From NCBI GenBank assembly GCA_041649315.1, contig JBAZNJ010000002.1, positions 128,851 to 192,850 on the forward strand: a stretch of DNA of 64,000 bases. Direction: 5' to 3'. Below, piece by piece: positions 1,989 to 47,512 of the stretch. Both the position numbers and the translations under genes were made by a program. Positions within the stretch are counted from its first letter, which is position 1; the number at the start of each line of letters is the position of its first letter. The stretch comes from Patescibacteria group bacterium. GTDB taxonomy: Bacteria; Patescibacteriota; Patescibacteriia; Patescibacteriales; UBA12465. The notes below the pieces were generated by a model. The model made no database searches and was not told the DNA's origin. It worked only from the letters and a program-made list of their open reading frames with translations.

Positions 1989-4457
1989 ATGAACGGCAAT
2001 AGCCAACCCGGTCCGGAACGGCCGGGGCTCGCCGGTAAGACGATTTTAATCGTTAACACGGCCGGCGCGAACGACCCCTTACATTCTAAAAAAGCTTTTA
2101 TCAGGAAGATAAAAAGTTTCGGGGTCAAGATAGTCGTTTTAGGACGGGAAGCGACGAGCTTCCAGCCCTATGTTGATTATTGCCTGAAGGCGGATACTTT
2201 GAATTATCCGAGCGCTTTGGCGGCTTTAGATGAGTTTTTAAAAGCGCGGCCGGAAATAAAACTTGACGGCGCCTTAACTTTTTTAGAAGACGATGTCCTT
2301 CTCACAGCTAAGATTGTCGATAAATATCATTTGATTGGGACTTCTTATAAAGTCGCCGGCCGGATCCGGAACAAGCATTCTTTTCGGGATTTTTGCGCCG
2401 CTAACCGTTTGCCGACGGTCGCCTGCCGGGAGCTTAAGAATAGCCGCGATTTAGAGGAAGTAGCGAAAACCACGCGCTTTCCCCTAGTGGTTAAGCCGGC
2501 TTATGGCGCAGCTAGCGCTTTCGTGGTTAAAGTCGATGATGAGGTGGAATTACGCGAAAGCTATGAATATATTAAGAAAAAGATTTCGCCCAGGGTCGAG
2601 TCGGCTTTGAACGACGGCTTGGAGATTTTTGTCGAGGAATATATTGATGGCGACGAGGTTGATCTTGATATCTTGGTTCAAAACGGAAAGATAAAATTTT
2701 GCGCGGTATCCGATAACAGCAAGACCTCGGAGCCGTTTTTTATTGAGAAAGTCCGGACTACGCCTTCTAATCTGCCGCCGAAGAATCAAGCCGAGCTTTT
2801 AGATATGGCCGACGAAGTTCTGGAAAAGCTCGGCATCCTTAACGCCTGTGTCCATTTTGAAGCGAAATCCACGGCCCGCGGACCGATGCCTTTAGAAATC
2901 AATCTGCGCCTGGGCGGCGACGAGGTCTATCCGAGCGTTAAGGCGGCCTGGCGTGTTGATTTAGTCGAGAATATGTTGAAGATTGCGCTCGGCGTTTATA
3001 TTCCGAAATTTGAATTCCCGAGCGGTCCTTATGAATATCTGGCCGCGGAAACATTTTCCGCGCCATATTCCGGAACAATCGTTAATCTGGAAATTGACAA
3101 GGATTTGGAGCGCCGATCTTTTGTGAAAGAATTTGAATTTGAGAAACGTATCGGGGAAGCGGTCTTATGTCCGCCGGACGGCTATGAATATCTTGGTTGG
3201 ATTTTAGTTTCCGGTCATAATCCTTTAGACGCCCAGGATAATTTGCGCGAGGCCGAGCAAGCGATTCGCTACGATATTGCAAAATTTCATCCGGCCTCGT
3301 CGATCGGCAAAACCCGCCGCCGTTCGCCCTTTTCCGCTTCGGCGATAAATGTTGAAATCTTAAAACGTCGGAGCAAAATCGAGAAGATCCGCCGGATGGA
3401 GATTTCCAATCAGCGGAATCTTCATATCGGAATTGCCTGCAATCTTTATAGTGAGAATGAGGTTGACCAGGAAACCGCGGTGGAAAACGATTTAACCGTT
3501 ATTGGTCGGGAAATTGAAAAAACCTTGGCCGAGCGCGGCTACCGGCTCAGTTTTTTTGATTTTAATGATGTTGCTAAGGCCTTTAATGATTTAAAAAATA
3601 GCGATGTTGATCTGGTTTTTAATGTCTGCGAACGGATTAATAACTCAAGTTTATTAGAGCCCCATGTCGCCTCAATTATGGATACTTTACAAATTCCATA
3701 CACCGGCTCAAATCCTTTTACTCTCGGCCTTTGCATCGATAAGATCCGGGTCAAGAAATTATTAACTTACCATAAGATTCCAACGCCGGAATGGGATTAT
3801 GTTTATTCGCTTGACGACGATATCCGCGAGGATCTGCAGTATCCGTTAATCGTTAAGCCGGCAAACACGGATAATTCAATCGGGATTACCAATGATTCCG
3901 TGGTTCGGAATCGGGCCGAGCTTGATCGCCAACTGGAAAAAGTAATTAAGGAAATTGGCCGGCCGGCGCTGATTGAAGAATATATTGATGGCGATGAATA
4001 TGACGTGCCGATTATCGGTTCGGAAGAGGACGATTTACGGGTTTTACCGCTTGCCCGTTCAATCTTTGACGCTTTGCCGGCCGACCGTTGGCATATCTAT
4101 CCTTTTGAGGCTAAGTATTCCGAGAGTGAAATTTATAAAAAAATTGTTGTCCAACGGCCGCCAAAAAATATCAGCAAGCGCCTTGAGGCACTTCTGGGAG
4201 AAATCGCACTTGATACTTATAATATTCTTGATTGCCATGATTACGGCCGGATAGAGATTCGGGTTGATAAGAATAATAATCCTTATGTCCTGGAGCTTAA
4301 CCCCAATCCTTCGCTTGACGCCGGCGGAACTTTTTCTTCTTCCGCCAAGGTTATCGGCCTTGACTACGGTGATTTTTTAGAAGAAATAATTCGTTTGGCG
4401 ATTAAGCGGTATAAGGATAACCCGCCTTATTATCATCTCCAGCCGAATATGATGTAA
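1989..4457 (+). CDS. fusion of two ATP-grasp ligase modules (N-terminal carboxylate-amine ligase-like, C-terminal D-Ala-D-Ala-ligase-like)
   Basis: Module 1 carries FPLVVKPAYGAASAFVVKV, EEYIDGDEVDLDILV and LEINLRLGGD. Module 2 carries the Ddl-like prelude NVCERINNSSLLEPHVASIMDTLQIPYTGSN, then YPLIVKPANTDNSIGI, EEYIDGDEYDV and LELNPNPSL. Confidence 0.8.
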   Translation: MNGNSQPGPERPGLAGKTILIVNTAGANDPLHSKKAFIRKIKSFGVKIVVLGREATSFQPYVDYCLKADTLNYPSALAALDEFLKARPEIKLDGALTFLEDDVLLTAKIVDKYHLIGTSYKVAGRIRNKHSFRDFCAANRLPTVACRELKNSRDLEEVAKTTRFPLVVKPAYGAASAFVVKVDDEVELRESYEYIKKKISPRVESALNDGLEIFVEEYIDGDEVDLDILVQNGKIKFCAVSDNSKTSEPFFIEKVRTTPSNLPPKNQAELLDMADEVLEKLGILNACVHFEAKSTARGPMPLEINLRLGGDEVYPSVKAAWRVDLVENMLKIALGVYIPKFEFPSGPYEYLAAETFSAPYSGTIVNLEIDKDLERRSFVKEFEFEKRIGEAVLCPPDGYEYLGWILVSGHNPLDAQDNLREAEQAIRYDIAKFHPASSIGKTRRRSPFSASAINVEILKRRSKIEKIRRMEISNQRNLHIGIACNLYSENEVDQETAVENDLTVIGREIEKTLAERGYRLSFFDFNDVAKAFNDLKNSDVDLVFNVCERINNSSLLEPHVASIMDTLQIPYTGSNPFTLGLCIDKIRVKKLLTYHKIPTPEWDYVYSLDDDIREDLQYPLIVKPANTDNSIGITNDSVVRNRAELDRQLEKVIKEIGRPALIEEYIDGDEYDVPIIGSEEDDLRVLPLARSIFDALPADRWHIYPFEAKYSESEIYKKIVVQRPPKNISKRLEALLGEIALDTYNILDCHDYGRIEIRVDKNNNPYVLELNPNPSLDAGGTFSSSAKVIGLDYGDFLEEIIRLAIKRYKDNPPYYHLQPNMM

Positions 4458-4541
4458 AATTTTTTCCACCGGATACTTAGCCCGTGTGGTTTTTATTTTA
4501 TTTAATTATTTGTTTAATTTATTTATTCGATTTATTTATCC

Positions 4542-4564
4542 GATAAATCATATCATGATTTATC
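4542..4564. promoter_or_regulatory. perfect 10-bp inverted repeat with 3-bp spacer (gataaatcat atc atgatttatc) upstream of the SET gene
   Basis: Read directly: 4542-4551 is the reverse complement of 4555-4564. It ends 15 bp before the ATG at 4579. Confidence 0.35.
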
Positions 4565-4578
4565 AACCAATTTAGAAT

Positions 4579-5133
4579 ATGAAAAAAGTTAAAAGCATTA
4601 TCCCGTTCCTTTGCGAGCTCCGCCCATCAAAAATATTATCAGGTGAAGTCGGTGCCTTCGCGGTTAGGAATATTAAGAAGGGCTTGATTATTTCTCGATC
4701 TGATTCGCCGGAAGCCGCTGTTTCTTTACCGCTTCGTTATTTTAAAAAACTCGATAAGATTACTCGGGAAAAGATTAATAGTTTTTCCGCGCTTGATAAA
4801 AATAAGGAATATCGCTTGCCGGCTGATTTAAATAATATGGGCGCTTCCTGGTATTTTAATCATAGCTGTTCTCCGAATATGGCTTTTGATCGTCAAGCGA
4901 ATTTAGTCGCGCTTAGAAATATTAAAAAAGACGAAGAATTAACTTTTGATTACGGCTGGATTTTTGATGAGAAATTCAAGATGAAGTGCGCTTGCGGCTC
5001 GCCTAATTGCCGGAAAGTCGTTACCGGACTTGATTTACTTGATCCGGAATTTAGAAAATATAGCCATAATAAGATGTGGCCGGATACGCGGCTTCGGGTG
5101 GCGCTTACGGAGTGCCCAGCCAAGCAGCGATAA
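4579..5133 (+). CDS. SET-domain protein lysine methyltransferase with post-SET Cys cluster
   Basis: Hallmark motifs NHSCSPN, ELTFDY and CACGSPNCRK (post-SET). Confidence 0.85.
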   Translation: MKKVKSIIPFLCELRPSKILSGEVGAFAVRNIKKGLIISRSDSPEAAVSLPLRYFKKLDKITREKINSFSALDKNKEYRLPADLNNMGASWYFNHSCSPNMAFDRQANLVALRNIKKDEELTFDYGWIFDEKFKMKCACGSPNCRKVVTGLDLLDPEFRKYSHNKMWPDTRLRVALTECPAKQR

Positions 5134-5182
5134 CCAATAAGAGGCGAGAGATTTTAGTCAGATAAAGAAACCCTTGTATTTA

Positions 5183-5211
5183 TTGGCATATTTTTAGGGG
5201 TGTGCTATAAT
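5183..5211 (+). promoter_or_regulatory. putative strong sigma-70 promoter (TTGGCA, 17-nt spacer, TGc-TATAAT)
   Basis: ttggca at 5183-5188, a 17-nt spacer ending in tgc, and tataat at 5206-5211. It is flanked by two 12-bp direct repeats, cttgtatttatt (5173-5184 and 5215-5226). Confidence 0.5.
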
Positions 5212-5382
5212 ATACTTGTATTTATTAGGTTTTCAACAGGCGGACTTTAAAAAGAATTTAGCGATTTCTTATTTAAGAAAAAAAGTAAAAATCGTGCTTT
5301 TAATAAATTTAAATATTATTTAAAAGAATCTTATTATTAAGCTCGGCGTTAGCCGGCCTATTAATCAGATTCTCACAAAGTT

Positions 5383-5664
5383 ATGTCAAAAATGACCAAG
5401 TCCCAGATGATCGCTTCTTTGTCGGAAGCGGCCGGTTTAAGCAAAAAAGACACGGCGGCTTTCATGGATAACCTGGCCAGCTTCGTGTACAAGGAAGTTA
5501 AGAAATCCGGTGAATGCATTTTGCCTGGTTTCGGCAAGGTCGTAAAAGCGAACCGCAAAGCGAGAGAGGGCCGCAATCCGGCGACTGGGGAAACCATTAA
5601 AATCCCGGCCAAAACCGTAGTTAAATTTCGCTTGTCCAAGGCGGCAAAAGAAGCCATCCTTTAG
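5383..5664 (+). CDS. hup: DNA-binding protein HU (HU/IHF family)
   Basis: 93 aa. MTKSQMIASLSEAAGLSKKD..., the beta-arm RKAREGRNPATGETIKIPAKTVVKFR and a KFRLSKAAK ending are typical of HU. Confidence 0.9.
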   Translation: MSKMTKSQMIASLSEAAGLSKKDTAAFMDNLASFVYKEVKKSGECILPGFGKVVKANRKAREGRNPATGETIKIPAKTVVKFRLSKAAKEAIL

Positions 5665-6489: not shown

Positions 6490-7146
6490 ATGAGTTTTGA
6501 TTTGATAAAAAAATTTAAGAATAAGCAGGCCTTAAGTAAATTAAAGAGCCGGGATAAAGAAGCTTTTATCAAGGCCTACGATGAGAACGCGGAGGAGATT
6601 CATCGCTTCGTCTATTTTAAGGTCGGCAATCGGGAAGAGGCCGATGATCTGACTTCAATGATTTTCTTGAAATGCTGGCACCATATCCAGAATAAAACCC
6701 TGGAAGACGCTAACACTTTACGGGCTTTATTGTATAAGATTGCGCGGACTTCAATTGTTGATTATTACCGGGCAAACAGCGGCCGTCCGGCCGCGTCTTT
6801 AGACGATGAGGAGAATAAAATCGAGATTATGGACGATTCTGAAGATCCGCGGGACCGCCTGGATCGGGAAAGGGAAATAGAGCTTATCCGGCGGCAATTA
6901 CCACTTTTAAAGGAAGAATATCGGGAAATAATTATTATGAAATTTGTTAATGATTTATCGCTTGATGAGATTGCTGATGTAAGCGGGAAAAGCAAGGGGA
7001 GTATCAAAGTTATGATTCATCGGGCGCTTAGCGCTTTAAAAGAGATGGTTGAGAAAAATTTGGCTGAATCATCCGGATCGCCCGCGCCCGGCGAGATTGG
7101 AAAAGCAGCGGTTAAACCGCGTCGTTCGAGAAAAATGACGGGATAA
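6490..7146 (+). CDS. RNA polymerase sigma factor, sigma-70/ECF-like (regions 2 and 4)
   Basis: Region 2-like IHRFVYFKVGNREEADDLTSMIFLKCW and IARTSIVDYYR. Region 4-like EYREIIIMKFVNDLSLDEIADVSGKSKGSIKVMIHRALSALK. Confidence 0.8.
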   Translation: MSFDLIKKFKNKQALSKLKSRDKEAFIKAYDENAEEIHRFVYFKVGNREEADDLTSMIFLKCWHHIQNKTLEDANTLRALLYKIARTSIVDYYRANSGRPAASLDDEENKIEIMDDSEDPRDRLDREREIELIRRQLPLLKEEYREIIIMKFVNDLSLDEIADVSGKSKGSIKVMIHRALSALKEMVEKNLAESSGSPAPGEIGKAAVKPRRSRKMTG

Positions 7147-7271
7147 AAAACCATTAAATAAAATATCTAATTAAAACAAAAATAGCTATTAGTCAAGTGT
7201 AACTTTATTGTAATTTATACGTATATTATAGTGTAAAGTTATTAAGCATTTTTTAGTAAATAGTAAAATTT

Positions 7272-8201
7272 ATGACTAATAACGAACTCATCTCTAAACT
7301 GAATAATCTGAAAAATGTCAATCCCGGGGCGAGCTGGAAAAAAAGCAATCGGGATCTTTTATTGGCTCAAATTTCAAATTCCGGAGCAGAAGAACTTTCG
7401 ACTTGGAAAATTTTTGTGATTAATTTTGAAAGCGTCCTAAAAGCCGCGGTTCGTCCGGTATCGGCTCTGGGCGTTTTTGTTTTATTATTGTTAGGCGGGG
7501 CGAGTAGCTACCAGATTTTCGCTCAAGCGAAACCGAACGACTCCTTATATATCGCCCGGGTAATTTCGGAAAAGGTTAAACTTAATACCGTTGTTAATAC
7601 GCAAGAGCGGGATAAATTAGCGGCCCGTTTTGCTTCTAACCATGCTCGGGATATCAGCGCGATTTTAGCCAATCCGGAATTTAATAATGAAGAGAATCAG
7701 GACCAGGTCGCGAAGTTAAGTGAAAGCTTTAATAAGGAAGTCGATACGGTTAAAGACCGGATTAACCGGATAAGCCGCGCGGACGCGCCGGTCGCGAGTG
7801 AAACTGAAGAAGAAAAAGAAGGGGAAGCAGAAATAATTATTGCTGATAGTTTTAAGGACGATAGTGGGATTCAATTAGCGGAAGCAGAAACGCCGGTCGC
7901 AGAAATATTAGAAACCGAGACCGAGATTGAAGTTGAAGCGGAAAAAGACGAGGCGGTCGCTTTAGAAATAAAGAAAGACGAGGCGGCTGAGGTATTGGCG
8001 GACGAAGGAGCGGATGCGGCGTCTAAGGAAGCGGCCAGCGCTTTGTTGAAGAATTTAGCTATAGAAGCGGAAGAGAAGGCCGCGGATGCGGATAACGTAG
8101 CGATTGAAAAAATATTAAATGAAGCCAAGGAATTATTTGATAATAAAGAATACGACGGCGTCCTGGAAAAACTCCAGGCCTTAGGAGAGCTTATTAAGTA
8201 A
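7272..8201 (+). CDS. single-pass membrane protein, DUF5667-like, with acidic Ala/Glu-rich C-terminus (possible anti-sigma/sigma-associated)
   Basis: TM segment VSALGVFVLLLLGGASSY followed by PNDSLYIARVISEKVKL...RDKLAARFASNHARDI (DUF5667-like pattern). Sits immediately downstream of the sigma gene. Confidence 0.55.
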   Translation: MTNNELISKLNNLKNVNPGASWKKSNRDLLLAQISNSGAEELSTWKIFVINFESVLKAAVRPVSALGVFVLLLLGGASSYQIFAQAKPNDSLYIARVISEKVKLNTVVNTQERDKLAARFASNHARDISAILANPEFNNEENQDQVAKLSESFNKEVDTVKDRINRISRADAPVASETEEEKEGEAEIIIADSFKDDSGIQLAEAETPVAEILETETEIEVEAEKDEAVALEIKKDEAAEVLADEGADAASKEAASALLKNLAIEAEEKAADADNVAIEKILNEAKELFDNKEYDGVLEKLQALGELIK

Positions 8202-8228
8202 TCTTTAATTTTAAATTTCGATAGCGCT

Positions 8229-8316
8229 AATCTGTTAGTTTATCTCTCCTTGTTAATCCTAGCCGGAAGATCCGTCTTCCGCTCCGGACGGACCGGATGA
8301 GATAAATTAACAGATT
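8229..8316 (+). other. long 18-bp-stem hairpin enclosing two GC hairpins; first part of a structured GC-rich non-coding region (8229 to about 8600)
   Basis: aatctgttagtttatctc (8229-8246) pairs with gagataaattaacagatt (8299-8316). The single G:U pair is only compatible with a + strand RNA. Inner hairpins are cggaaga/tcttccg and tccgg/ccgga. Confidence 0.35.
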
Positions 8317-8633
8317 CGCGTTTGCGAATCGGCAGACCTGATCAAGGTCGAGTCGCAGTGATGCGGCGGTTTGTCCATTATTAACCTTAAATTTCAATTC
8401 AAAGCTTGAAAGAAAGCAAATCAAAGAAATCCGTAAATCGGTTAAGCTTTTCTCCAGTCGGCGGGCAACACGCGCTTGACTGGCAGAACTTTTTTGAAGA
8501 TCAGCCGGTCATCGCCTTAAGCTAAAAGCCGAATGGCGAAGCGGGATTCCGACTGATTTACCCTTTTCCGAAATTTCTTTTAAAGTAGAGTAGAGAATTG
8601 ATCCTTATCATTATTGTTTAGTTCCGACTACTA

Positions 8634-8653
8634 TTGTCCGGACAAACTATAAT
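8634..8653 (+). promoter_or_regulatory. TATAAT -10 box (8648-8653) preceded by the 12-bp palindrome ttgtccggacaa (8634-8645), just upstream of the S-layer-like gene
   Basis: Read directly. The ATG at 8670 is 17 nt after the -10 box, implying a very short leader. No good -35 box. Confidence 0.3.
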
Positions 8654-8669
8654 GATCTAATCATTAATT

Positions 8670-11600
8670 ATGAAAAAATTACGCAAATTCCTAGTCAGCA
8701 GCGTAATGGGATTAACGGTTTTAGCCATGTGTGGCTTAGTTGCTCCTGAGGTCAATGCGGCCGCTTCCGCGGGCGATTTGATCAAAATGAGTGGCAACTC
8801 TTCCGTTTATTACCTTGGCGCTGATGGCAAGAGATATGTCTTCCCTAACGAAGCGACCTATATGTCGTGGTATTCTGATTTCAGCGGCGTGGTAACCATC
8901 CCGTCTGCCGAACTTCAGAGCTACGCTCTCGGTGGTAACGTTACCATGAGACCGGGTACGAAGTTAGTGAAGATTACGACTGATCCTTCTGTTTATGCTG
9001 TTGAAACCAATGGCACGCTCAGAAAGATCCAGAGTGAAGCTCAAGCGGCCGCTTTATACGGCACGGATTGGGCAAAACGGGTAGTTGATGTTCCGGATGC
9101 TTTCTTTACCAACTACACGGTTGGTGCGGCTTTAGCGAGCGGAGCGACTCCGGTCGGTTCTTTAGTTAAGAACGCGACTGGCGCTGATATCTTCTACTAT
9201 GATGGTACTAATTATCGGAAAATTGATAACGAAGCAGCCATGACGGCTAATCGCTTTAAGATGAGCGACGTCATTACTGCGGCGACTACGGTTGCGGCCG
9301 GCGGAACGGCGATCACGGCGGCGGAAACCGCTTTGGTTAATGTTTCTCAAGGCGCTTCTTCTCCGAGCACGGTTATCACTGGCTCCGGCCTGATGGTTTC
9401 TTTGAGCTCGGCGACTCCGGCGGCAGCTGGTATTCCGGCGGCCTCTCCGATGGAATTCTTAAAGATCAATTTAACGGCGGCTAACGACGGCGCGGTCAAT
9501 GTTTCCGCGATTACTTTAACTGCTTATGATCTTGGGACTTCTACTTATATTGATGAAGTTACCTTCTATGATAACGGCGTTAAGGTCGGAACTTCAAAGA
9601 ACTTTACTTCGGACCGCGTTGCTTCCTTTAGCTTTGCGACCCCGATTACTGTTAACGCGGGTACGACTAAGACCTTGACCGTCAAAGCGACGATCGAAAC
9701 CGGCCAGAGCGGAAACTTCGCGATCGGTATTGCGAAAGCGGCGGATATTACCGCGACCGCGTCTGCGGTTTCCGGTTCTTTCCCGGTTGTCGGTAACACG
9801 ATGTCCATCGTTTCCGGTGCGACTATCGGTACGGTTGCTGTTTCTAACGTTAATGGCACGGATACAGATAATAAATTCGGCGAAGATAATGTTCTTTTAG
9901 CTGGATTTGATTTAACGTCTGCTAACGAGCCGATTCTTATCCAGTCCATAAAATTACGGAATGGCGGAACCGACACGACCGGTATCGTTGATAACTTGAA
10001 GTTATTGGTTGACGGCACGGAAGTCGCGACCGGTACTTATGCTGATAAATACGTAACTTTTGCCATGAACAATTACAAGATCGCGAAAGGCGATACGGTT
10101 CAGGTTGAAGTTCGAGGTGATTTAGGTATAGCTAATGCTAATGATACCTTCACCTTATATATCAAGGATATCAATGATTGTGTCTTCCTTGGTCAGGATT
10201 ACGGCTTCGGCGTTCAGTTGACGGCCGCGAGCTTTGCTTTATTAGACACGACGACTGAAGGTATTACTGTTACCTTAAAGACCGGTCAATTCACGATTGA
10301 TATGGATAAGACTGCAACTCCTTCCAAGGATGTTAAAGCTGGCGACAACGATGTTGTCTTAGCGACTTTGGTTATGAAGTCTAATGGCGAAAATGCCACG
10401 ATCGAACAGATCGTTGACAGTGGCGCTGGTGACTTTGAAATCAATGGTACTGGCTTAGCGTCTGGTGAACTTGAGAACGTAGAAATGCGTGACGTTGCCA
10501 CTGGCGCCGTCTATGACATTACTGCGACTTGGGTTAACGATACCTTATGGACATTGTCTATGACCGATGAGATTTCCTTGGTTAAAGGCGTAGCCAAGAC
10601 CTTCCAGATCCGCGCTGATATGAGCGATACTGCTGGTGCGGTAATCGACGATGGCGATACTATTTATGTCGTTGTTGATGGAGGAGCTATGACGATTACC
10701 GGCGAAACTTCTAACGCCTCTATTACTGATATTACTCCGTCTTCCGTTACCTCCGCGACCGCGACGGTTAAGGATGCTTCCTTGACCTGGACCCCGACTG
10801 CTTTATCAACCCAGACGGTTGTCGGCGGCGCGCAGGATGTCGTTGTTTATCAGGCCTCTTTGAAAGCTGGTACGGCTGATGGTATTAAATTGTCCGCAGT
10901 GACGATTTCTACTATTGGTCACCAGGCAGCTTTCACTGATGCCGATATTACCAAGTTAGATTTATACTTGAACGGAAAACTGCTCAAGTCCGTTTCTAAC
11001 AGCATTGTTGAATCTGCTGCGACTCCGACTGACGGTTATATTACCTTCAACTCCTTCAGCAGTGAAGCTGACGCGACGATCGCGGCCGGCGCCACGGTTA
11101 ACTTAGTGGTTAAAGCGTCTTTCGCTTCCACGATTACCGCGGCCGGTAGCTTTACCCTTGAATTAGAATCTGCTGACGATGTTACTTCCCGCGCGGTTTC
11201 TACCAATGATGCGGTTACTGAAACCGGTACTATTTCTACAGCTTCTGGTACGGTTACCACGACGGCTAATGGTACTTTGAAGGTTGAGTTATTAACCTCC
11301 GGTTCTAAGACCAAGGATACCTATGTCTTGGCTGGCGCGGCTTCTCCGGCCGATCGCTATTTGGCGGAATTGAAGTTTACCACGCAATATGAACCGATCA
11401 AGGTTACCCGCTTACGCTTAGTCGATACCGGCACGGCGGCTTCTGATGATATCGCTTCTGTAAGATTAGTTACCAGCACTGGTACGATCGTAGCGGAAGA
11501 AATTCCGGAAGCTGATGGTCATGTTACTTTTGATCCGTTTGACTATACTTTCGCGGCCGATCAGGCGACCTCTTTGTACGTCCAGATTGTTACCCGGGGT

Positions 11601-12341
11601 ATGAATGTTTTGAATGATCCGACTTCAACCGCGGATTATAGACAGACCGTGATCTATAACATCGATCCGGCCGCTACTGGTATTGTGGCTAAGGGCGCGA
11701 ATTCCAGCGTTGCCACTACTTTAGCGGTGGATATTGATGATAATGTGATTACCGCGGGTGAATGGTCTCGGGCGGCGACTTTGTCTAAGACCGCGACTAT
11801 TACCGGTTCAATCTTGAACACGATTACCAACGCGATGTCCGACGGCGCCCTAACCGGCGGTACGGGCAAGACCTTGGCTAAGTACAAGTTTGTCTTTGAT
11901 AACGGAAGCAACCGCACCGCGGCTAACTCTGAATTAAAGGCGATTCTTGATGCTTTGACCGTTACCTTCTCTAAGGCGGCTGATGTTGTCGTTGCTAATG
12001 TTAAAGCTCATATCGACGGTACTGCCACTAAGGTAGCCGCTGATACGGAAACTACTTTAACTGCGGCTAACGCTTCTGGTTCCGCGACTTGGGATGCTTT
12101 GACCTTACAGGGCTTAGCTGATGACGGCGCGGTTGATGGCGAAGTCACCTTGGTTATTACCGGTGACGTTACCACGACTACGGCTGACAGCGAATATATC
12201 CAGACTTCGCTTGCGGATTTGGGTGGTTCCGGTAGCGATGACGATGTTAACTTCATCGGCGACGGTACTGCGGCTGGTACTGCTTTAACCAACATGTATT
12301 TGCCGGTTACGGAAGTTATCGGTGGTACTTTGGCTGAGTAG
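8670..12341 (+). CDS. giant secreted cell-surface (S-layer-like) protein with repeated beta-sandwich-like modules
   Basis: Signal peptide MKKLRKFLVSSVMGLTVLAMCGLVAPEVNAAAS. Three N-terminal modules of about 50 aa (VYYLGADGKRYVFPNE.. / VYAVETNGTLRKIQSE.. / IFYYDGTNYRKIDNE..). A long Thr/Ala/Val/Gly/Asp-rich body has recurring ...A.F.L.A..E.I.V..I.L-type modules. Strong T-ending codon bias, and three terminator hairpins lie downstream. Confidence 0.75.
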   Translation: MKKLRKFLVSSVMGLTVLAMCGLVAPEVNAAASAGDLIKMSGNSSVYYLGADGKRYVFPNEATYMSWYSDFSGVVTIPSAELQSYALGGNVTMRPGTKLVKITTDPSVYAVETNGTLRKIQSEAQAAALYGTDWAKRVVDVPDAFFTNYTVGAALASGATPVGSLVKNATGADIFYYDGTNYRKIDNEAAMTANRFKMSDVITAATTVAAGGTAITAAETALVNVSQGASSPSTVITGSGLMVSLSSATPAAAGIPAASPMEFLKINLTAANDGAVNVSAITLTAYDLGTSTYIDEVTFYDNGVKVGTSKNFTSDRVASFSFATPITVNAGTTKTLTVKATIETGQSGNFAIGIAKAADITATASAVSGSFPVVGNTMSIVSGATIGTVAVSNVNGTDTDNKFGEDNVLLAGFDLTSANEPILIQSIKLRNGGTDTTGIVDNLKLLVDGTEVATGTYADKYVTFAMNNYKIAKGDTVQVEVRGDLGIANANDTFTLYIKDINDCVFLGQDYGFGVQLTAASFALLDTTTEGITVTLKTGQFTIDMDKTATPSKDVKAGDNDVVLATLVMKSNGENATIEQIVDSGAGDFEINGTGLASGELENVEMRDVATGAVYDITATWVNDTLWTLSMTDEISLVKGVAKTFQIRADMSDTAGAVIDDGDTIYVVVDGGAMTITGETSNASITDITPSSVTSATATVKDASLTWTPTALSTQTVVGGAQDVVVYQASLKAGTADGIKLSAVTISTIGHQAAFTDADITKLDLYLNGKLLKSVSNSIVESAATPTDGYITFNSFSSEADATIAAGATVNLVVKASFASTITAAGSFTLELESADDVTSRAVSTNDAVTETGTISTASGTVTTTANGTLKVELLTSGSKTKDTYVLAGAASPADRYLAELKFTTQYEPIKVTRLRLVDTGTAASDDIASVRLVTSTGTIVAEEIPEADGHVTFDPFDYTFAADQATSLYVQIVTRGMNVLNDPTSTADYRQTVIYNIDPAATGIVAKGANSSVATTLAVDIDDNVITAGEWSRAATLSKTATITGSILNTITNAMSDGALTGGTGKTLAKYKFVFDNGSNRTAANSELKAILDALTVTFSKAADVVVANVKAHIDGTATKVAADTETTLTAANASGSATWDALTLQGLADDGAVDGEVTLVITGDVTTTTADSEYIQTSLADLGGSGSDDDVNFIGDGTAAGTALTNMYLPVTEVIGGTLAE

Positions 12342-12390
12342 TCCGAAGTTCTGAACAGTTTTCCCGATTGGCTATAACAAATCGGTAACG

Positions 12391-12416
12391 AAAAGGGCGG
12401 CGCAAGCCGCCCTTTT
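12391..12416 (+). terminator. intrinsic terminator 1 of 3 after the S-layer-like gene
   Basis: aaaagggcggc gcaa gccgcccttttc. Confidence 0.75.
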
Positions 12417-12435
12417 CTAATAGAGAGAAGAATAA

Positions 12436-12457
12436 AAGAGCCCCGGCCGGGGCTCTT
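12436..12457 (+). terminator. GC hairpin 2 of 3 after the S-layer-like gene
   Basis: aagagccccgg ccggggctctt; weak T-tract. Confidence 0.5.
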
Positions 12458-12496
12458 GGCTGTAGCTTAAGGAATTGAGACCACACATAAAATTGT

Positions 12497-12521
12497 GGCC
12501 GACGAAAAAGTCGGCCTTTTT
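12497..12521 (+). terminator. intrinsic terminator 3 of 3 after the S-layer-like gene
   Basis: ggccgac gaaaaa gtcggcc ttttt. Confidence 0.7.
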
Positions 12522-12617
12522 GCTTTTAATTGCTGTTTATTTTTTCTTTAAAAAATCTTTATCCGAACTTCATTCGGGGTTTGCTATGATGGAGGAGAAA
12601 AATTTAATTTAAGGAAT

Positions 12618-13079
12618 ATGGATAAATATAACAAAAAAAATTTTAAGAAAATAAAAAACAAAATAAATAGCCAGTATAAAAATATTGGCCGTGTTTATAA
12701 TCCAGCCTTAAGATCTAACGTTTCGTTTAATTCTAACGGTTGGCATCATCTTTGTTATGATAATAACCGGTCTGAACGTAGTAAAGCAGTTCAAATAAAT
12801 AAACTCAGATTTTTTAGCAATGCGGTAAATATTATAAAAAAGTCAACCACGATTCAAGAGTATAGACGAGGAAAACTTAGTATTGATGGAAAGGAATCAG
12901 TAGTTGAATGGTTTGCATTTTGGTCAATCATTAGTTTTATAAAACTAATCAGGATAAAAGTCATAGTTAGACGTATTGGAGGGCTTAATGGCCAATATCA
13001 TTTTTGGAGCGTGATGCCATTTTGGTCTCTTCGACAGGGAGAGAGGTTTATTGGATCGGCTGGGCTGGAGTATGAATAA
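12618..13079 (+). CDS. hypothetical protein (153 aa, Lys/Asn-rich N-terminus), AT-rich orphan
   Basis: ATG ORF with its own extended -10 box (tgctatgat, 12582-12590) and its own terminator. No motif recognised. Visibly more AT-rich than its neighbours. Confidence 0.5.
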   Translation: MDKYNKKNFKKIKNKINSQYKNIGRVYNPALRSNVSFNSNGWHHLCYDNNRSERSKAVQINKLRFFSNAVNIIKKSTTIQEYRRGKLSIDGKESVVEWFAFWSIISFIKLIRIKVIVRRIGGLNGQYHFWSVMPFWSLRQGERFIGSAGLEYE

Positions 13080-13082
13080 AAT

Positions 13083-13113
13083 AAAAACACTCTTTTTTTA
13101 AAAGAGTGTTTTT
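13083..13113 (+). terminator. intrinsic terminator of the 153-aa ORF
   Basis: acactctttt ttt aaaagagtgt followed by tttt. Confidence 0.7.
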
Positions 13114-13352
13114 ATCGTGCCTGCTTTTCGGCTTATAGCCCCGATGGGGTTAGGCCGAACGGAGCCTTCGCTCACAAGCACACTATTATTATATATCGGT
13201 TTATTATAATTGTCAAAATATTGTGCGAGCGAGTTTTGTGGAGCGCTAACTGGCCGGAGGGAGTTTTTTTGTGTTATAATATTATTGGTATTTTTATGAA
13301 AAAATAAATTTAAATTTTTCGTAAATATTTTTAACTTATTTTTAAAAATCTT

Positions 13353-20966: not shown

Positions 20967-21389
20967 GTTATCGAGGTAAGCGGGCGATCGCTCCGTTTTT
21001 TAAATAGTTCGCTGTTTAAAAGGGGGAGAGGAAAGTCCGGACTCCAAAAACAGGATAGTGGGTAACGCCCACCGGTCCGCCAACGAGCGGATTAGGGATA
21101 GCGCCACAGAGACAATACTAATTCCGGAATATTTAAACGGAATAAAAGGTGAAAAGAAATCGGGTGCGTTGAGCGCGGCTTCGGCCGGGTAAAGCGCTAC
21201 CGTTTTCGGCCTCCGGCGACGGAGAGACCGCGGCAAGCCCTATCTTGGAGCAAGAGCAAACTCGTTTTATTTTTAGCTTCGGCTGATTATAAAGCGAAGA
21301 CAAGTAGCTCGCTTGAGCCCTTTGGCAACATCGGGCCTTAGATAAATGATCGCTTAGAACAGAATCCGGCTTACGGCTGCCTTGATAAC
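20967..21389 (+). ncRNA. rnpB: RNase P RNA, bacterial type A
   Basis: Universal P4 strands gagaggaaagtccggactcc (about 21028) and acagaatccggcttac (about 21358). The gggtaacgcc motif is present. P1 pairs gttatcgagg (20967-20976) with ccttgataac (21380-21389). Confidence 0.9.
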
Positions 21390-21419: not shown

Positions 21420-22841
21420 ATGAAAACAAGAAAAATCGAATCTTTTTTTTCCGTGCTTTTTGTGCCTTTGGATTTTATCCTCGTGGTTTTGGCCGGAGTT
21501 TCCGCTTATTATTTAAGATTCTCTGAATGGTCGGTGAGCATCCGCCCGGCAATTTTTAATTTGCCATTTGCCGGTTATTTTAAATCTCTGCTCTTAATGG
21601 CGCTTCTTTGGCTGATAATTTTTGCCATTGCCGGATTATATCAGATTCGCAGCGCGCATCAGATCGCTCAGGAGCTTAAAAAAATATTTTTAGCCTGCTC
21701 GACCGGTTTAGCTTTAGTAGCGATTATAATCTTTTTCCAGCGCGATCTTTTTGATTCGCGTTTTATTGTTTTAGCCGGTTGGCTCCTGGCAACTGTTTAT
21801 CTTAGCTTGAGCCATATTATCGTCCGCTGGATAGAACGCCGTTTGCTTATTTTCGGAATTGGCGTTCATAAAGTCATCTTAGTCGGCGATTCTAAAACTA
21901 CGGATAATCTGATGGCGGAGTTTTCCCGCAATCGTCGGTCCGGTTTTGAAGTTATTAAACGGGTACGGGATTTTTCTTTAGAAACTGCCCAGGAATTGAT
22001 TGATTTTATAAAAGATCGGGAGGTCGATGAGATAATCCAGAGTGATCCTAATTTAAGTAAGATTGAAACCTTGCGGCTTTATGATTTTGCTAATGAAAAC
22101 CATATTACTTTTAAATACGTAGCCGATCTTCTAGAAGTGAAAGTGCTACGAACGGAAGTGGCGGAAATAATCGGTATTCCGGTCGTGGAAGTTAAACGGA
22201 CGACTTTGGACGGCTGGGGCCGGATTTTTAAAAGAATTTTTGATGTTATTTTTTCCGGATTATTTATTTTAATCTTATCGCCGATAATCCTTTTAACCAT
22301 GTTAGCGATTAAGCTTGATTCGCGCGGTCCGGTTTTCTTTTCGCGTCGCGATGACGGCACCCCGGTTACCCGGGTCGGAGAAGGCGGTCAGCCCTTCCGT
22401 TATTTTAAATTCCGTTCCATGATTCCGAATTCCGACAGCATGCGCTATAAAGAATTAGCCGAACATAATCTGCGGACCGACGGTCCGATGGTTAAGATTA
22501 AGGACGACCCGCGGATTACTCGCGTCGGGAAATTTATTCGCCGCTGGTCAATTGATGAATTACCGGAATTATTTTTGGTTTTTAGCGGCCGGATGAGCTT
22601 AGTCGGACCGCGGCCGCATTTACCGGAAGAAGTCGCGAAGTATGAAAATTATCATCGGAAAACTTTGACGATCAAACCGGGGATTACCGGCTTAGCTCAG
22701 GTATCGGGTCGGAGCGATTTACCTTTTGAAGAAGAAGCGAAGCTCGACATTTATTATATTGAAAATTGGTCCATGCTTTTAGATATTTCTATTTTATTAA
22801 GAACGCCTTTCGCGGTTATTAAGCATCGGGAAGCGGAATAA
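21420..22841 (+). CDS. polyprenyl-phosphate hexose-1-phosphate transferase (WbaP/bacterial sugar transferase family, priming enzyme)
   Basis: N-terminal TM bundle plus the C-terminal PF02397-type core RIFDVIFSGLFILILSPIILL, FKFRSM, DELPELFLVFSGRMSLVGPRP, KPGITGLAQVSGRS. Confidence 0.85.
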   Translation: MKTRKIESFFSVLFVPLDFILVVLAGVSAYYLRFSEWSVSIRPAIFNLPFAGYFKSLLLMALLWLIIFAIAGLYQIRSAHQIAQELKKIFLACSTGLALVAIIIFFQRDLFDSRFIVLAGWLLATVYLSLSHIIVRWIERRLLIFGIGVHKVILVGDSKTTDNLMAEFSRNRRSGFEVIKRVRDFSLETAQELIDFIKDREVDEIIQSDPNLSKIETLRLYDFANENHITFKYVADLLEVKVLRTEVAEIIGIPVVEVKRTTLDGWGRIFKRIFDVIFSGLFILILSPIILLTMLAIKLDSRGPVFFSRRDDGTPVTRVGEGGQPFRYFKFRSMIPNSDSMRYKELAEHNLRTDGPMVKIKDDPRITRVGKFIRRWSIDELPELFLVFSGRMSLVGPRPHLPEEVAKYENYHRKTLTIKPGITGLAQVSGRSDLPFEEEAKLDIYYIENWSMLLDISILLRTPFAVIKHREAE

Positions 22842-22918
22842 AGATAAATAAGTTTTTGAATTGCGGTTGATAAATATCGGAAAACGAGAAATAATAAATT
22901 ATAAAGAAAGATTTAATT

Positions 22919-24022
22919 ATGAGAGTTGCTCTAATTCATGATCATCTAGCTCAAGACGGCGGGGCTGAAAAAGTGTTGCAGGTTTTAGCCGGCATGTTTC
23001 CGGAGGCGCCGATTTATACTTTGCTTAGCGAGCGGAAGCAGGTTGATAAATATTTTCCGGGCCGGCGGATTGAAACCTCAATTATCCAGAAATTGCCGGG
23101 CGGCGTTAAGCATTATCAATGGTATTTAGCTTTTATGCCCATGGCCGTGGAGTTTTTTGATTTGCGTGGCTATGATTTGGTAATTTCCGATTCAAGTTCT
23201 TTTGCCAAAGGCGTGATTACCCGGCCGGACTGCCTGCATATTGATTATTGCCATACGCCGACGCGCTATCTTTGGAGCGACACGCATCAATATATCAATG
23301 AGCTTAAATATAATCGTTGGTTTAAGAAAATAATTTCCATGGTCTTGAACCGGATCCGGATCTGGGATCGGGCGGCGGCTCAGCGGCCGGACATTATGAT
23401 CGCTAATTCAGAAACGATCAAGCAAAGAATTTTTAAATATTATCGCCGGGAAGCGGTCGTGATTTATCCGCCGGTTGAAGTTGATAAGTTTAAAGTTGCG
23501 GAAACAAAAAGCGCCGAGGAAGAATATTTTTTAGCCGGTTGCCGTTTGGCCCCGTATAAACGTATTGATTTAGTTGTTGAGGCCTTTAAGCAATTAGGTC
23601 AGGAATATAAATTAAAGATTTTTGGCGATGGCGTTGATTTGAAGCGCTTGAAAAAAATTTCTGCCGGAGCCGGCAATATTGAATTTTTAGGACGGGTGAA
23701 CGAGGAGGAGAAGATTAAGCTATTTCAGCGCGCTCAGGCTTTTATTAATCCTCAAGAAGAAGATTTCGGGATTACCGCGGTTGAGTCCATGGCCGCCGGC
23801 CGGCCGGTTATCGCTTATAAAAAAGGCGGCGCGACCGAGACCGTAATTGAAGGAAAGACCGGGATATTTTTTGACGAGCAGACGCCGCCGGCGTTAGCCA
23901 AAGCGATTAAGAATTTCCGGGCGGCGGATTTTGATTCGGCGGAAATCTGTCAGCAGGCCGAAAAATTTTCCGTGGAGAATTTTAAGAATAGGTTAAGGGA
24001 GCTAATAGATAGTAAGTTATGA
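22919..24022 (+). CDS. glycosyltransferase family 4 (GT-B, retaining)
   Basis: C-terminal GT1/GT4 signature EEDFGITAVESMAAGRPVIAYKKGGATETV. Confidence 0.8.
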   Translation: MRVALIHDHLAQDGGAEKVLQVLAGMFPEAPIYTLLSERKQVDKYFPGRRIETSIIQKLPGGVKHYQWYLAFMPMAVEFFDLRGYDLVISDSSSFAKGVITRPDCLHIDYCHTPTRYLWSDTHQYINELKYNRWFKKIISMVLNRIRIWDRAAAQRPDIMIANSETIKQRIFKYYRREAVVIYPPVEVDKFKVAETKSAEEEYFLAGCRLAPYKRIDLVVEAFKQLGQEYKLKIFGDGVDLKRLKKISAGAGNIEFLGRVNEEEKIKLFQRAQAFINPQEEDFGITAVESMAAGRPVIAYKKGGATETVIEGKTGIFFDEQTPPALAKAIKNFRAADFDSAEICQQAEKFSVENFKNRLRELIDSKL

Positions 24023-25245
24023 AAATCGGTATCGACATCAGAGTTTTAATGGATAAGCAATATAGCGGCATATCAGAATATACCGCTAATTTATTGTCTG
24101 TAATTTTACGTCGAAATGAAGACGCGGTCGCGCCGGATGATTATGTTTTATTTTATAACTCCTTCCATGATTTAAGTAGCCGTTTAGATAAATGGTCCGG
24201 CGCTCATGCTCGGGTAATCGCGACGCGTTGGCCGAACAAGATTTTTAATTATCTACTCCAGAAAACCTTGGCTTGGCCGAAGATTGATAAGGTTTTGGGC
24301 GGGGTCGATCTATTCTGGTCGCCGCATTTTAATTTTACCCGGTTAAGCTCCGCGCCAATCGGCCCGAAGAAAATTATCACCGTTCATGATCTTTCTTTTC
24401 TCCGCTATCCGGAATTTTTTTCCGGACGGAAAAATTTTTGGCATCGCGCTTTAAGCATTAAAAAAACTTTGCGCGCCGCCGATAAGATTATCGCAATTTC
24501 AGAAAATACTAAAAATGATCTAATCGAACTCATCGGCATCGCGCCGGAAAAAATAAAAGTAATTTATTCCGGGAATAATTATTCAGTAAAAATTAATAAT
24601 TCCGCGGAAGACAGGAAAAATAATGGCACCGTAGTTGAAGAAATTAAAGATGATATTAAGAATAAGATTAAAGATGAAATTAGAGATATTGCTGATGGCC
24701 GTTTTATTCTATATCTAGGCAATATTGAACCGCGTAAAAATGTTGACGGTTTAATCAAAGCTTATGACCGCCTGCGTTCTGATGACCGGTCCGGCCGTTT
24801 TAAAGATTTGAAATTGGTGATTGCCGGAGCCAAGGCCTGGAAGAACCGCGCCGCTTATCTGGCGCAAAAAAAATCGTCTTATTGTAATGATATTAAATTT
24901 TTAGGTTATGTTAGCCAAAAAGATAAAGAAATTTTAATGGCTTCAGCTGTGGTTTTCTGTTACCCCTCTTTTTATGAAGGCTTTGGATTCCCGCCGCTTG
25001 AAGCGATGTCGGCCGGAACACCGGTTGTTTGTTCTAATGTTTCAAGTTTGCCGGAAGTTGTCGGCGATGCCGCCTTGACGGTTAATCCGTTTAAGATTGA
25101 AGAAATTGTCGAGGCCTTGCGCTTAGTTTTAAGCGATGAAAAATTACGGCAAAAATTAATAGAGCGCGGACATCGACAGGCGGCGTTATTCTCCTGGGAT
25201 AAAGCGGCAGGAGAATATTTGGAGTTATTCCAGAAGCTTAAATGA
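24019..25245 (+). CDS. glycosyltransferase family 4
   Basis: YEGFGFPPLEAMSAGTPVVCSNVSSLPEVVGDAA. 4-bp ATGA overlap with the upstream GT. Confidence 0.8.
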   Translation: MKIGIDIRVLMDKQYSGISEYTANLLSVILRRNEDAVAPDDYVLFYNSFHDLSSRLDKWSGAHARVIATRWPNKIFNYLLQKTLAWPKIDKVLGGVDLFWSPHFNFTRLSSAPIGPKKIITVHDLSFLRYPEFFSGRKNFWHRALSIKKTLRAADKIIAISENTKNDLIELIGIAPEKIKVIYSGNNYSVKINNSAEDRKNNGTVVEEIKDDIKNKIKDEIRDIADGRFILYLGNIEPRKNVDGLIKAYDRLRSDDRSGRFKDLKLVIAGAKAWKNRAAYLAQKKSSYCNDIKFLGYVSQKDKEILMASAVVFCYPSFYEGFGFPPLEAMSAGTPVVCSNVSSLPEVVGDAALTVNPFKIEEIVEALRLVLSDEKLRQKLIERGHRQAALFSWDKAAGEYLELFQKLK

Positions 25246-26535: not shown

Positions 26536-26536
26536 G

Positions 26537-26620
26537 TGCCCAAGGCGGGAATCGAACCCGCACGGAGTCGCCTCCACGCGATTTTGAGTCGCGCGCGTCT
26601 GCCAGTTCCGCCACTCGGGC
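26537..26620 (-). tRNA. tRNA-Leu (anticodon CAA), class II with long variable arm; CCA not encoded
   Basis: The reverse complement folds as acceptor gcccgag/cttgggc, anticodon arm cgcga-ctCAAaa-tcgcg, variable arm ggag-gcga-ctcc, and T arm gcggg-ttcgatt-cccgc. Confidence 0.9.
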
Positions 26621-26745
26621 GCTTATTGATTACGAAAATTAGTATAGTAAATAAATCGTTGATTGTCAAAATTGTCAAAGCTCTTTCTTTAGGATATAAT
26701 AAAAATAGCGGAGAAAAATATTTTTTCGCATTTTTAGATAATTTT

Positions 26746-27510
26746 ATGGGTAAAACCATTGCGATTGTCAATCAAAAAGGCGGGGTGGGGAAAACCACGT
26801 CCGCCGTCAATATCGGCGCTTATTTAGCTTACTTAGGCAAGCAGGTTTTGCTTGTTGATATTGACCCGCAGGCCAACGCGACTTCCGGTCTCGGCCTTGA
26901 TCATCGGAACCTTGAAGCCGGCGTTTACGAAGCGCTGATTGGCGATAAACCGCTGGCCCAGGTAATAAAAAGAAGCGTCCAGTCCGGCTTAAAAGTCGCG
27001 CCGGCGACTTTATCTTTGGCCGGGGCTGGCGTGGAAATGGTTAATATGGAAAATAGGGAATTCCGTTTAGCTAATGTTTTAGAAGAAATAAAAAAAGAAT
27101 TTGATTATATTATTATCGACGGTCCGCCTTCGCTCGGACTTTTAACGGTTAATAGCTTGGTCGCTGCCGACGAAGTTTTAATCCCGATTCAGAGCGAATA
27201 TTACGCGCTTGAAGGATTAAGCCAGCTTTTAGAAACGATTAGCTTAGTCCAGAACAATTTAAAACCGAGTTTAGGGATTATGGGTGCGATAATTACCATG
27301 TTTGATCGTCGGAATAAATTATCCGAATCGGTAATGGAAGAATTATACCAATATTTCCCGAATCGTATTTTCCGTTCGGTTATTCCGCGCAGCGTCCGTT
27401 TGGCCGAAGCGCCGAGCTATGGCCGTTCAATTTTACATTATGACCCGAAATCCAAAGGCGGACGAGCTTACGAAGGCCTGGCGCGGGAGATTTTGAGTTT
27501 GGAGAAATAG
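26746..27510 (+). CDS. parA: chromosome partitioning ATPase ParA/Soj
   Basis: Deviant Walker A IAIVNQKGGVGKTT, plus DIDPQANAT and LIPIQSEYYALEGL. The true start is the ATG at 26746. The longer ORF from 26536 runs antisense over tRNA-Leu. Confidence 0.9.
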   Translation: MGKTIAIVNQKGGVGKTTSAVNIGAYLAYLGKQVLLVDIDPQANATSGLGLDHRNLEAGVYEALIGDKPLAQVIKRSVQSGLKVAPATLSLAGAGVEMVNMENREFRLANVLEEIKKEFDYIIIDGPPSLGLLTVNSLVAADEVLIPIQSEYYALEGLSQLLETISLVQNNLKPSLGIMGAIITMFDRRNKLSESVMEELYQYFPNRIFRSVIPRSVRLAEAPSYGRSILHYDPKSKGGRAYEGLAREILSLEK

Positions 27511-43998: not shown

Positions 43999-44148
43999 AA
44001 TTATAATAAAAATTTTGGTAATTTTAATAAGGGGTTTTAAGCCCCTGATAATAAAATTTCCACTATTATTTATGTTTATTTTATGGTAATATTATGCTAT
44101 CATAGCTAATAAATTTAATCAAGAGTCCGGCCGCGCGCCGTTTTGTTT

Positions 44149-45636: not shown

Positions 45637-45701
45637 TTTATAATGTGATGGCCGCCGAATATTATTTAAATTTTTAGCGTTCAAATTTTTAGTATCTAAT
45701 T

Positions 45702-46787: not shown

Positions 46788-46805
46788 AAAAATATTTTTC
46801 AAATT

Positions 46806-47507: not shown

Positions 47508-47512
47508 ATTTT

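Follow-up and report, generated by a model that had tools for sequence, protein, structure and literature searches.

GshF, a bifunctional glutathione synthetase, carries out two-step peptide synthesis in a single polypeptide, with a glutamate–cysteine ligase, not an ATP-grasp, as its N-terminal half and a Ddl-like ATP-grasp as its C-terminal half. RimK and TTL are precedents for ATP-grasp enzymes that modify proteins, and archaea and chlamydiae have SET enzymes that methylate chromatin proteins. SET-like and ATP-grasp domains are paired within one protein in TTLL12, a eukaryotic member of the TTL family. TTLL12 is reported to be inactive in both assays (PMC3520985). In the D-Glu pathway of Xanthomonas, the ligase MurD2 adds L-Glu, after which MurL, an ATP- and Mg-dependent unidirectional epimerase, acts on the ligated residue (PMC5808125, PMC8788868). 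BurB of Burkholderia (PDB 9l4t), a SET-domain methionine S-methyltransferase, methylates free methionine (PMC12542666). Here we analyze a locus that invites comparison with these systems: a double ATP-grasp ligase gene and a SET methyltransferase gene, followed by a gene for the DNA-binding protein HU, in a 64,000-nt stretch of a Patescibacteria group bacterium (contig JBAZNJ010000002.1). This whole stretch is referred to below as the window.

We read the ligase and the SET methyltransferase, with a probability of roughly 0.55, as the reduced form of a ribosome-independent pathway of Patescibacteria, partly shared with DPANN archaea, for a peptide or amino-acid conjugate. The best reading of the product is a tailored non-ribosomal peptide or an envelope decoration. 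A sequence-only reading had located three open reading frames (ORFs) here, and we recovered all three at the claimed positions on the + strand: the fused ligase at 1989–4457 (822 aa; Pfam, NCBIfam, and an AlphaFold model), the SET-domain protein at 4579–5133 (184 aa; Pfam SET), and an HU/IHF-family DNA-binding protein at 5383–5664 (93 aa; Bac_DNA_binding). The domain matches of all three lie far above chance expectation.

The fused ligase

The N-terminal module (2028–3290, +; residues ~14–434) is of the L-amino-acid ligase (LAL) type. Pfam places ATP-grasp_4 (5e-30) and LAL_C2 (6e-10; 39.6 bits vs a cut-off of 29.4) within residues ~130–430, and a PDB sequence search aligned residues 42–424 with the LAL BL00235 of Bacillus licheniformis (3vot, 1e-27). 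An AlphaFold model built on an alignment of 44 homologues (predicted local distance difference test score, pLDDT, 80.6) contains two complete three-domain ATP-grasp modules. When the N half of this model was searched with Foldseek, 3vot was the top PDB match (template-modeling score, TM, 0.86), with RizA at 0.79 and YwfE/BacD at 0.72; carbamoyl-phosphate synthetase matched as a two-module protein. The inter-module linker (3291–3422, +; residues ~435–478) falls below pLDDT 50 over residues 435–461, and its sequence is conserved despite this low confidence (e.g., SSIGKT, KIEKIRRM). K169, E216, E303, N305, and R307 of the N half are invariant across the 44 homologues, and both halves show the three-domain fold of an ATP-grasp with its invariant Lys and Mg-binding Glu/Asn pair (K169/E303/N305 and K623/E769/N771, respectively). 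Like BL00235, RizA, and YwfE/BacD, the N half combines an ATP-grasp_4 core with LAL_C2, resembles LALs in sequence and fold, and finds its closest structures among them. Unlike these enzymes, with which it shares 18–23% identity, it is fused to a second ATP-grasp and occurs in bacteria of the candidate phyla radiation (CPR). By these resemblances, the N half is an LAL module predicted to form dipeptides.

The C-terminal module (3423–4457, +; residues ~479–822) is a Ddl-like ATP-grasp of a distinct subfamily marked by an NxCER...LLEP motif. Residues 609–801 match Dala_Dala_lig_C in Pfam (2.8e-35), residues 559–809 match the Ddl structure 3r23 (2.5e-24), and the modeled fold superimposes on Ddl enzymes with TM values of 0.84–0.88. 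Every NCBIfam Ddl model nevertheless scored below its own curated cut-off, the best being PRK01372 (179.7 bits vs 243), with TIGR01205 at 145 bits vs 245.65. For a residue-level comparison we used the sequence of E. coli DdlB, which fits the literature numbering at 17 of 17 positions. The nucleotide- and Mg-binding residues are retained: K97, K144, S151, E180, K215, R255, E270, and N272 (DdlB numbering) are kept, and D257 is replaced by Glu. The residues that hold D-Ala are not conserved: S150 is Asn, Y216 is Tyr or Trp, S281 and L282 are lost, and the position aligned with E15 is variable. The HGxxGEDG loop of Ddl is replaced by an invariant NxCERIN..LLEP motif. The C half thus shares with DdlB its fold, its ATP- and Mg-binding residues, and the omega-loop Lys, and differs from it in its sub-threshold scores, its missing D-Ala-binding residues and loop, and its membership in a subfamily of its own. 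Judged by these residues, it looks like an active ATP-grasp, and we place it in a distinct subfamily derived from Ddl. A housekeeping D-Ala–D-Ala ligase (EC 6.3.2.4) was rejected as an identity for this half on residue and cut-off grounds. Other forms of the subfamily include stand-alone proteins of 330–380 aa, fusions to an Acetyltransf_3 GNAT, and doubled versions. In one relative (L049:6728-7858), an extra 376-aa Ddl-like ORF overlaps the fused ligase upstream, which places three ATP-grasp modules in a row.

The sequence-only reading had favored a protein-modifying ATP-grasp of the RimK or TTL kind, and had itself named firm clustering with small-molecule ligases as the outcome that would speak against it. 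Both halves cluster, in sequence and by Foldseek, with the small-molecule ligases LAL and Ddl. RimK and TTL were both absent from the 50 best Foldseek matches of the ligase halves, TTL gave no Pfam match in the 822-aa protein, and the Pfam RimK model reached 25.7 bits, a generic overlap without an individually significant stretch. With LAL and Ddl as the closest families and folds, a RimK or TTL identity was rejected for either half. We propose that the protein would be a bifunctional amide-bond-forming enzyme that joins an LAL module to a Ddl-derived module lacking the D-Ala–D-Ala residues. Each module would convert a carboxylate to an acyl-phosphate and then couple it to an amine, and the fusion may build a di- or tripeptide in two steps. 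The predicted two-step synthesis in one chain and the Ddl-like C-terminal ATP-grasp are GshF-like; unlike GshF, the N half is itself an ATP-grasp.

Among 670 database homologues of the ligase, the best 120 are all from Patescibacteria, measure ~815–825 aa, and are 61–99% identical, and fused relatives reach down to ~29–39% identity. Relatives at 55–82% identity occur in at least 468 species-representative genomes, spanning Falkowbacteria, Komeilibacteria, Gracilibacteria, Peregrinibacteria, Paceibacterota, Roizmanbacteria, and Jacksonbacteria. A literature search found no description of this ligase fusion, which is a widespread, previously uncharacterized Patescibacteria family. The closest stand-alone relatives of the C half (41–43% identity) are ligases of Woesearchaeota (L173:7001-9117, L174:7001-10113). 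These are followed by one or two GNAT genes related to the C-terminal domain of MprF, 35% identical to a GNAT that accompanies a CPR locus (L078). By sequence, then, a ligase paired with an aminoacyl-transferase-type GNAT appears common to CPR bacteria and DPANN archaea, which points to sharing of a two-gene module across domains between ultra-small episymbionts and speaks against a function tied strictly to murein. Both groups consist of episymbionts with a minimal metabolism. That a ligase of ~820 aa is kept at 55–82% identity across class-level lineages of such organisms implies an important product.

Gene company of the ligase

We surveyed 84 distinct ligase-centered loci and counted only loci whose downstream sequence extended for at least 2.5 kb. 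A close clade was defined by ligases at least 73% identical to that of the window (n = 32), and distant loci by identities below 70% (n = 35). The close-clade order is a SIMPL gene, the ligase, a ~300-aa FemAB-like tandem GNAT, zero, one, or two SET genes, and HU, beyond which lie a small helix-turn-helix gene on the opposite strand and an extracytoplasmic-function (ECF)-type sigma factor. The GNAT gene is present in 29 of the 32 loci, starting 6–38 nt past the ligase end, and is absent only from the window and two relatives (L012, L015). SET follows in 17 of 32, directly after the ligase or after ligase and GNAT, and HU is present in 24 of 32. Eight loci carry HU without SET, and about ten have ligase and GNAT with neither. 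At the position of the GNAT gene, the window has an AT-rich 121-nt spacer (4458–4578), and no homologue of the GNAT partner was found anywhere in its 64 kb, nor any second Ddl-like or LAL-like gene. The window locus is therefore atypical, with the GNAT missing and only SET type A kept. Many metagenome-assembled genome records that carry the locus (L008, L011, L014, L022, and others) are titled 'uncultured Gammaproteobacteria bacterium' and are probably mislabeled.

The distant loci show a different company. Their 35 members include MurL-like genes (8), GNATs (7), a third ATP-grasp (5), and LysA-like genes (5), with an enolase-superfamily enzyme and a DegT-like protein in two each; HU occurs in none and SET in one (L044). 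These operons are tight, with genes that abut or overlap by 4–19 nt. The MurL-like partner, a ~456-aa protein with a PP-loop-like SFGKDS motif, is matched by the MurL model NF041275 in seven of seven members (best E 3.6e-8, a remote similarity), and a PDB search returned no solved relative. The decarboxylase partner is closest to lysA (TIGR01048, 172 bits), followed by an exosortase-associated decarboxylase family, and the enolase-type partner is closest to L-Ala-D/L-Glu epimerase (NF041118, 168 bits). All 11 close-clade GNAT partners examined match PF13480, and the L078-type GNAT matches LPG_synthase_C, the MprF C-terminal family; searches of the GNAT partner against the PDB, by single sequence and by profile, gave nothing meaningful.

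A reciprocal survey, in which metagenomes were scanned with the MurL-like family, yielded 66 distinct loci, 44 of them with at least 3 kb of flank. Because 34 of these 44 carry an ATP-grasp homologous to the window ligase (11 as the full fusion, 22 as a stand-alone C-half-like protein, and one as the N-half-like part only), the Ddl-like ligase and the MurL-like epimerase form a conserved pair. LysA-like genes occur in 13 of the 44. The fullest operons read ligase, GNAT, MurL-like, enolase-type epimerase, DegT-like, third ATP-grasp, second MurL-like, LysA-like (L163) and ligase, MurL-like, enolase-type epimerase, DegT-like, GNAT, LysA-like (L167). As in the MurD2/MurL pathway, a ligase is paired with what resembles an ATP-dependent peptide-level epimerase, the MurL-like gene being a recurrent neighbor of the ligase family. 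Unlike that pathway, the ligase is an ATP-grasp and not a Mur ligase, the MurL similarity is remote, the window has no MurL-like gene, and a UDP-MurNAc substrate is not indicated.

Several further features recur in these operons. Two MurL-like paralogues occur together in some (L107:5602-8362; L163:6962-8371 and 11861-13255), which suggests two separate epimerization steps. Proteins of ~620–630 aa and 433–435 aa are recurrent members (L098:3773-6998, L064:10737-12599, L101:12101-13963, L139:5701-7008); the L064 product has no Pfam match, and the others were labeled by BLAST against the query set only. A ~60-aa four-cysteine zinc-ribbon ORF also recurs (L072:309-491(−), L113–L116, L158, L160) in several loci that carry ligase or MurL-like genes, and in L072 it lies apart from these genes. 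A search of more than 160 loci for a conserved small ORF that could be a carrier or precursor peptide gave only clade-specific synteny and antisense artefacts. This weakens, as weak evidence, models built on ribosomally synthesized and post-translationally modified peptides (RiPPs) or on a LysW-type carrier.

Taken at face value, the partners could suggest murein chemistry, with the C half as a housekeeping D-Ala–D-Ala ligase or the whole cluster building or editing the peptidoglycan stem peptide. Characterized kin of five cluster families, namely Ddl, MurL, L-Ala-D/L-Glu epimerase, diaminopimelate (DAP) decarboxylase, and FemAB, act on that peptide, the window holds no other Ddl-like gene, and one homologue of the window SET protein (L087) has a Mur ligase, a FemAB gene, and FtsQ in its vicinity. 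Set against this are the sub-threshold Ddl scores and the loss of the E15/S150/Y216 triad, of S281 and L282, and of HGxxGEDG. The family is also patchy across its 468 species genomes, and its closest stand-alone C-half relatives belong to Woesearchaeota, which to our knowledge have no murein. The ten larger window ORFs scanned with Pfam proved to be polysaccharide-synthesis and housekeeping genes, with no mur or ddl gene among them, and no mur genes lie next to the ligase in the surveyed loci. We consider a peptidoglycan role improbable.

The SET methyltransferase, HU, and the candidate substrate

The SET protein of the window (4579–5133, +; type A, with a post-SET zinc motif) scores 47.7 bits against a Pfam cut-off of 22.4 (2.2e-12). 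The motifs that the sequence-only reading had reported are present in its translation (NHSCSPN, EELTFDY, and post-SET C-A-C-GSPN-C). The protein thus has the NHSC and ELxFDY motifs, catalytic Tyr, and post-SET CxCx4C of the SET family, and N94, H95, C97, E119, E120, D124, Y125, C137, C139, and C144 are invariant across 34 homologues. Of the best-scoring PDB matches to the SET-A profile, BurB alone is a non-histone enzyme (2.6e-15). The parallel is that the window protein and BurB are both bacterial SET proteins encoded in biosynthetic clusters, a proposed one in the case of the window, with BurB acting on a small molecule. The match is, however, partial (~residues 62–158), and the window protein has a canonical post-SET zinc motif and lies closer to KMT2; the atom it methylates is probably N rather than S. 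The comparison with TTLL12 extends to the pairing of SET with ATP-grasp; unlike TTLL12, the two are separate genes here and TTL is not matched in Pfam.

Two SET types, A (~180 aa, the window type) and B (~248 aa), occur in the close clade. Outside it, SET genes appear in seven operon architectures (L044, L093, L094, L098, L128, L130, L139), in the company of ligase, MurL-like, or LysA-like genes, and in five of them (L044, L093, L098, L128, L139) directly beside the LysA-like gene. Three SET subtypes are represented, all keeping N..S, EE, and the catalytic Tyr: the L098 protein is canonical with a post-SET motif, and those of L044, L093, L128, and L139 are minimal and lack it, with the L044 protein above the Pfam SET threshold. 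Different SET lineages in the same gene company, arranged in different orders, argue for a functional ligase–SET link, which this recurrent adjacency supports; the adjacency counts are raw locus counts, without correction for phylogeny. The sequence-only reading had called for a check of neighborhood conservation, and its pairing of the two enzymes holds up, in 17 of 32 close-clade loci and in seven other, independent gene orders. Its choice of HU or another basic protein as the target is not supported.

The link could be illusory: the ligase would make a small peptide, and SET would be an independent protein lysine methyltransferase, with a protein target of its own, that by chance fills a slot of variable content. 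Such a slot does vary in the close clade (zero, one, or two SET genes), 121 nt separate ligase from SET in the window, the SET profile is KMT2-like, and SET-A homologues elsewhere sit in other contexts. SET genes are rare in bacteria, however, and chance does not readily account for three of their subtypes in at least seven other architectures with ligase, MurL-like, or LysA-like genes, where the stop codon of one gene often overlaps the start codon of the next. Spacing also speaks against it, as SET genes in relatives start 4–46 nt from the upstream gene and lie ~250 nt and a promoter away from HU. We consider two unrelated neighbors rather unlikely. The sequence-only reading had offered a similar fallback, a small-molecule peptide ligase unrelated to SET: its small-molecule ligase fits better than a protein-modifying one, and SET is probably related to it after all.

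HU was the substrate that the sequence-only reading preferred, alongside Lys-tailed ribosomal proteins, with the double ATP-grasp adding amino acids and SET methylating lysines on such a basic protein. Of 19 SET-bearing ligase-centered loci, 18 have HU immediately downstream, and the SET-A profile is nearest to protein lysine methyltransferases (KMT2, 3e-26). The HU protein itself (5383–5664, +) is an HU/IHF-family member, with a Bac_DNA_binding domain in ~90 aa (1.4e-27, 96.2 bits vs a cut-off of 22.4), and falls below the HU-alpha, HU-beta, and IHF equivalog cut-offs. Its gene begins ~250 nt past SET, behind a strong sigma-70-type promoter (5183–5211, +; TTGGCA-17-TG-TATAAT), a near-consensus extended −10 promoter matching at 11 of 12 positions; the sequence-only reading had placed a promoter in this spacer. 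The core of the promoter, TATTGGCAT...GTGCTATAAT, does not vary among five loci that differ in having SET-A, SET-B, or GNAT upstream. This invariant promoter and the wide gap, compared with the 4–46 nt spacing of SET genes, mark HU as an independent transcription unit beside a variable slot.

The distribution of HU agrees with this. It neighbors the ligase in only one family-level clade, so the proposed ligase–SET–HU module does not extend across lineages. Within that clade HU stays in eight loci that lack SET, and outside it HU is missing from all seven SET-bearing clusters, from all 35 distant ligase loci, and from all 66 MurL-like-centered loci; six divergent SET-A homologues likewise have no HU neighbor. 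A nucleoid or other basic protein as target is further disfavored by the LAL and Ddl character of the two ligase halves, by the generic RimK score and missing TTL match, by recurrent partner genes for metabolite-type enzymes, and by the failure to find a conserved small carrier or substrate ORF. HU is a bystander by synteny and not a target of the ligase or SET, and we place both the gene and its promoter outside the module. Modification of HU or of a ribosomal protein by this pair is very improbable, and the idea of a bacterial histone-code-like modification of HU is not worth pursuing on present evidence. The 5′ leader of HU (window 5212–5382; L001:10772-10944) contains conserved AT-rich blocks, ATTATTATTAAG ... 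TTATTAATAAG, that flank a short GC-containing segment and may form a conserved hairpin or autoregulatory site.

For the ribosome-independent pathway that we favor, domain identities, conserved catalytic residues, and gene-neighborhood statistics are observed, and from these we infer the substrates, the order of steps, and that SET modifies what the pathway makes and not a protein. The fuller pathway would comprise the fused ligase with a tandem GNAT, a MurL-like epimerase, an enolase-type dipeptide epimerase, a third ATP-grasp, a LysA-like enzyme, and one or two SET proteins. The GNAT, as a FemAB/MprF-C-like tandem aminoacyl transferase, may add a residue from an aminoacyl-tRNA, and after ligation the MurL-like and enolase-type epimerases would invert a C-terminal residue to give a D-residue at the peptide level. 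The LysA-like pyridoxal-phosphate-dependent decarboxylase would yield a lysine-type primary amine, which SET would then methylate. Possible acceptors include a free peptide, an amino sugar, a lipid head group, and an envelope polymer. In the lineage of the window, the cluster would have been reduced to ligase and SET-A at this locus.

Several observations weigh against this pathway. More than half of the distant ligase loci (20 of 35) have no recognizable partner within 5 kb, and neither the window nor the close-clade sequence analyzed contains epimerase or decarboxylase genes, so that inference from the distant operons may not transfer. The MurL-like scores are weak (23–35 bits vs a family cut-off of 700), and the LysA-like and epimerase-like matches also fall under curated cut-offs; partner matches at this level are family-level resemblances, not assignments. 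The SET-A profile ranks KMT2-type SET domains above BurB, and on this profile its substrate could be a protein. The six divergent SET-A homologues lie in unrelated contexts, none near HU or a ligase; two adjoin histidine kinases, and one is the L087 gene mentioned above.

The most specific version of the proposal is that SET N-methylates the lysine-type amine of a small D-amino-acid peptide or envelope conjugate. We advance it tentatively, as a possibility. Its setting would be an undescribed ribosome-independent pathway of CPR bacteria and, in part, DPANN archaea, which we hold with equal reserve to comprise ATP-grasp ligases, aminoacyl-transferase-type GNATs, MurL-type epimerases, and a DAP-decarboxylase-like enzyme. 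The gene company points to such an undescribed D-residue-containing, amine-methylated peptide or envelope decoration. If this is correct, SET domains would have a non-protein, N-directed role in bacteria, and their chemistry would extend beyond protein lysines, for which BurB is the only precedent we found.

Other features of the window

Upstream of the ligase, a short ORF at 24–233 ends in a Gly/Arg/Phe-rich low-complexity tail (GGRGGRGGGFGGSGGGFGGFGGG). It is followed at 259–1095 by a DNA_alkylation repair protein of 278 aa, compared with ~248 aa in relatives, which carries an insert of ~35–40 aa with a repeated QQAIVIE/RQAIVIE-like motif. Downstream of HU, 6490–12341 encodes an ECF-type sigma factor (6490–7146). 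Next come an acidic protein of 309 aa and a protein of 1223 aa that is rich in Thr and Ala and has a hydrophobic, signal-like segment at its N terminus. L001 shows the same order of sigma factor, ~300-aa protein, and very large protein, and its ~300-aa protein faintly matches DUF5667.

Farther along, the window contains a class A RNase P RNA (20972–21388, 190.8 bits), tRNA-Leu(CAA) at 26536–26620(−), and tRNA-Gln(CTG) at 51770–51843(+). The upstream GTG start of an ORF listed at 26536–27510(+) is probably spurious, because this ORF overlaps the tRNA-Leu. ParB is encoded at 29721–30599, which bears on the description of HU in the sequence-only reading as the window's only nucleoid protein gene. 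Two regions, 21420–25245 and 44143–49653, carry polysaccharide-synthesis genes, including an initiating sugar transferase, two GT4 glycosyltransferases, a Wzx-type flippase, and a Wzy-like polymerase.

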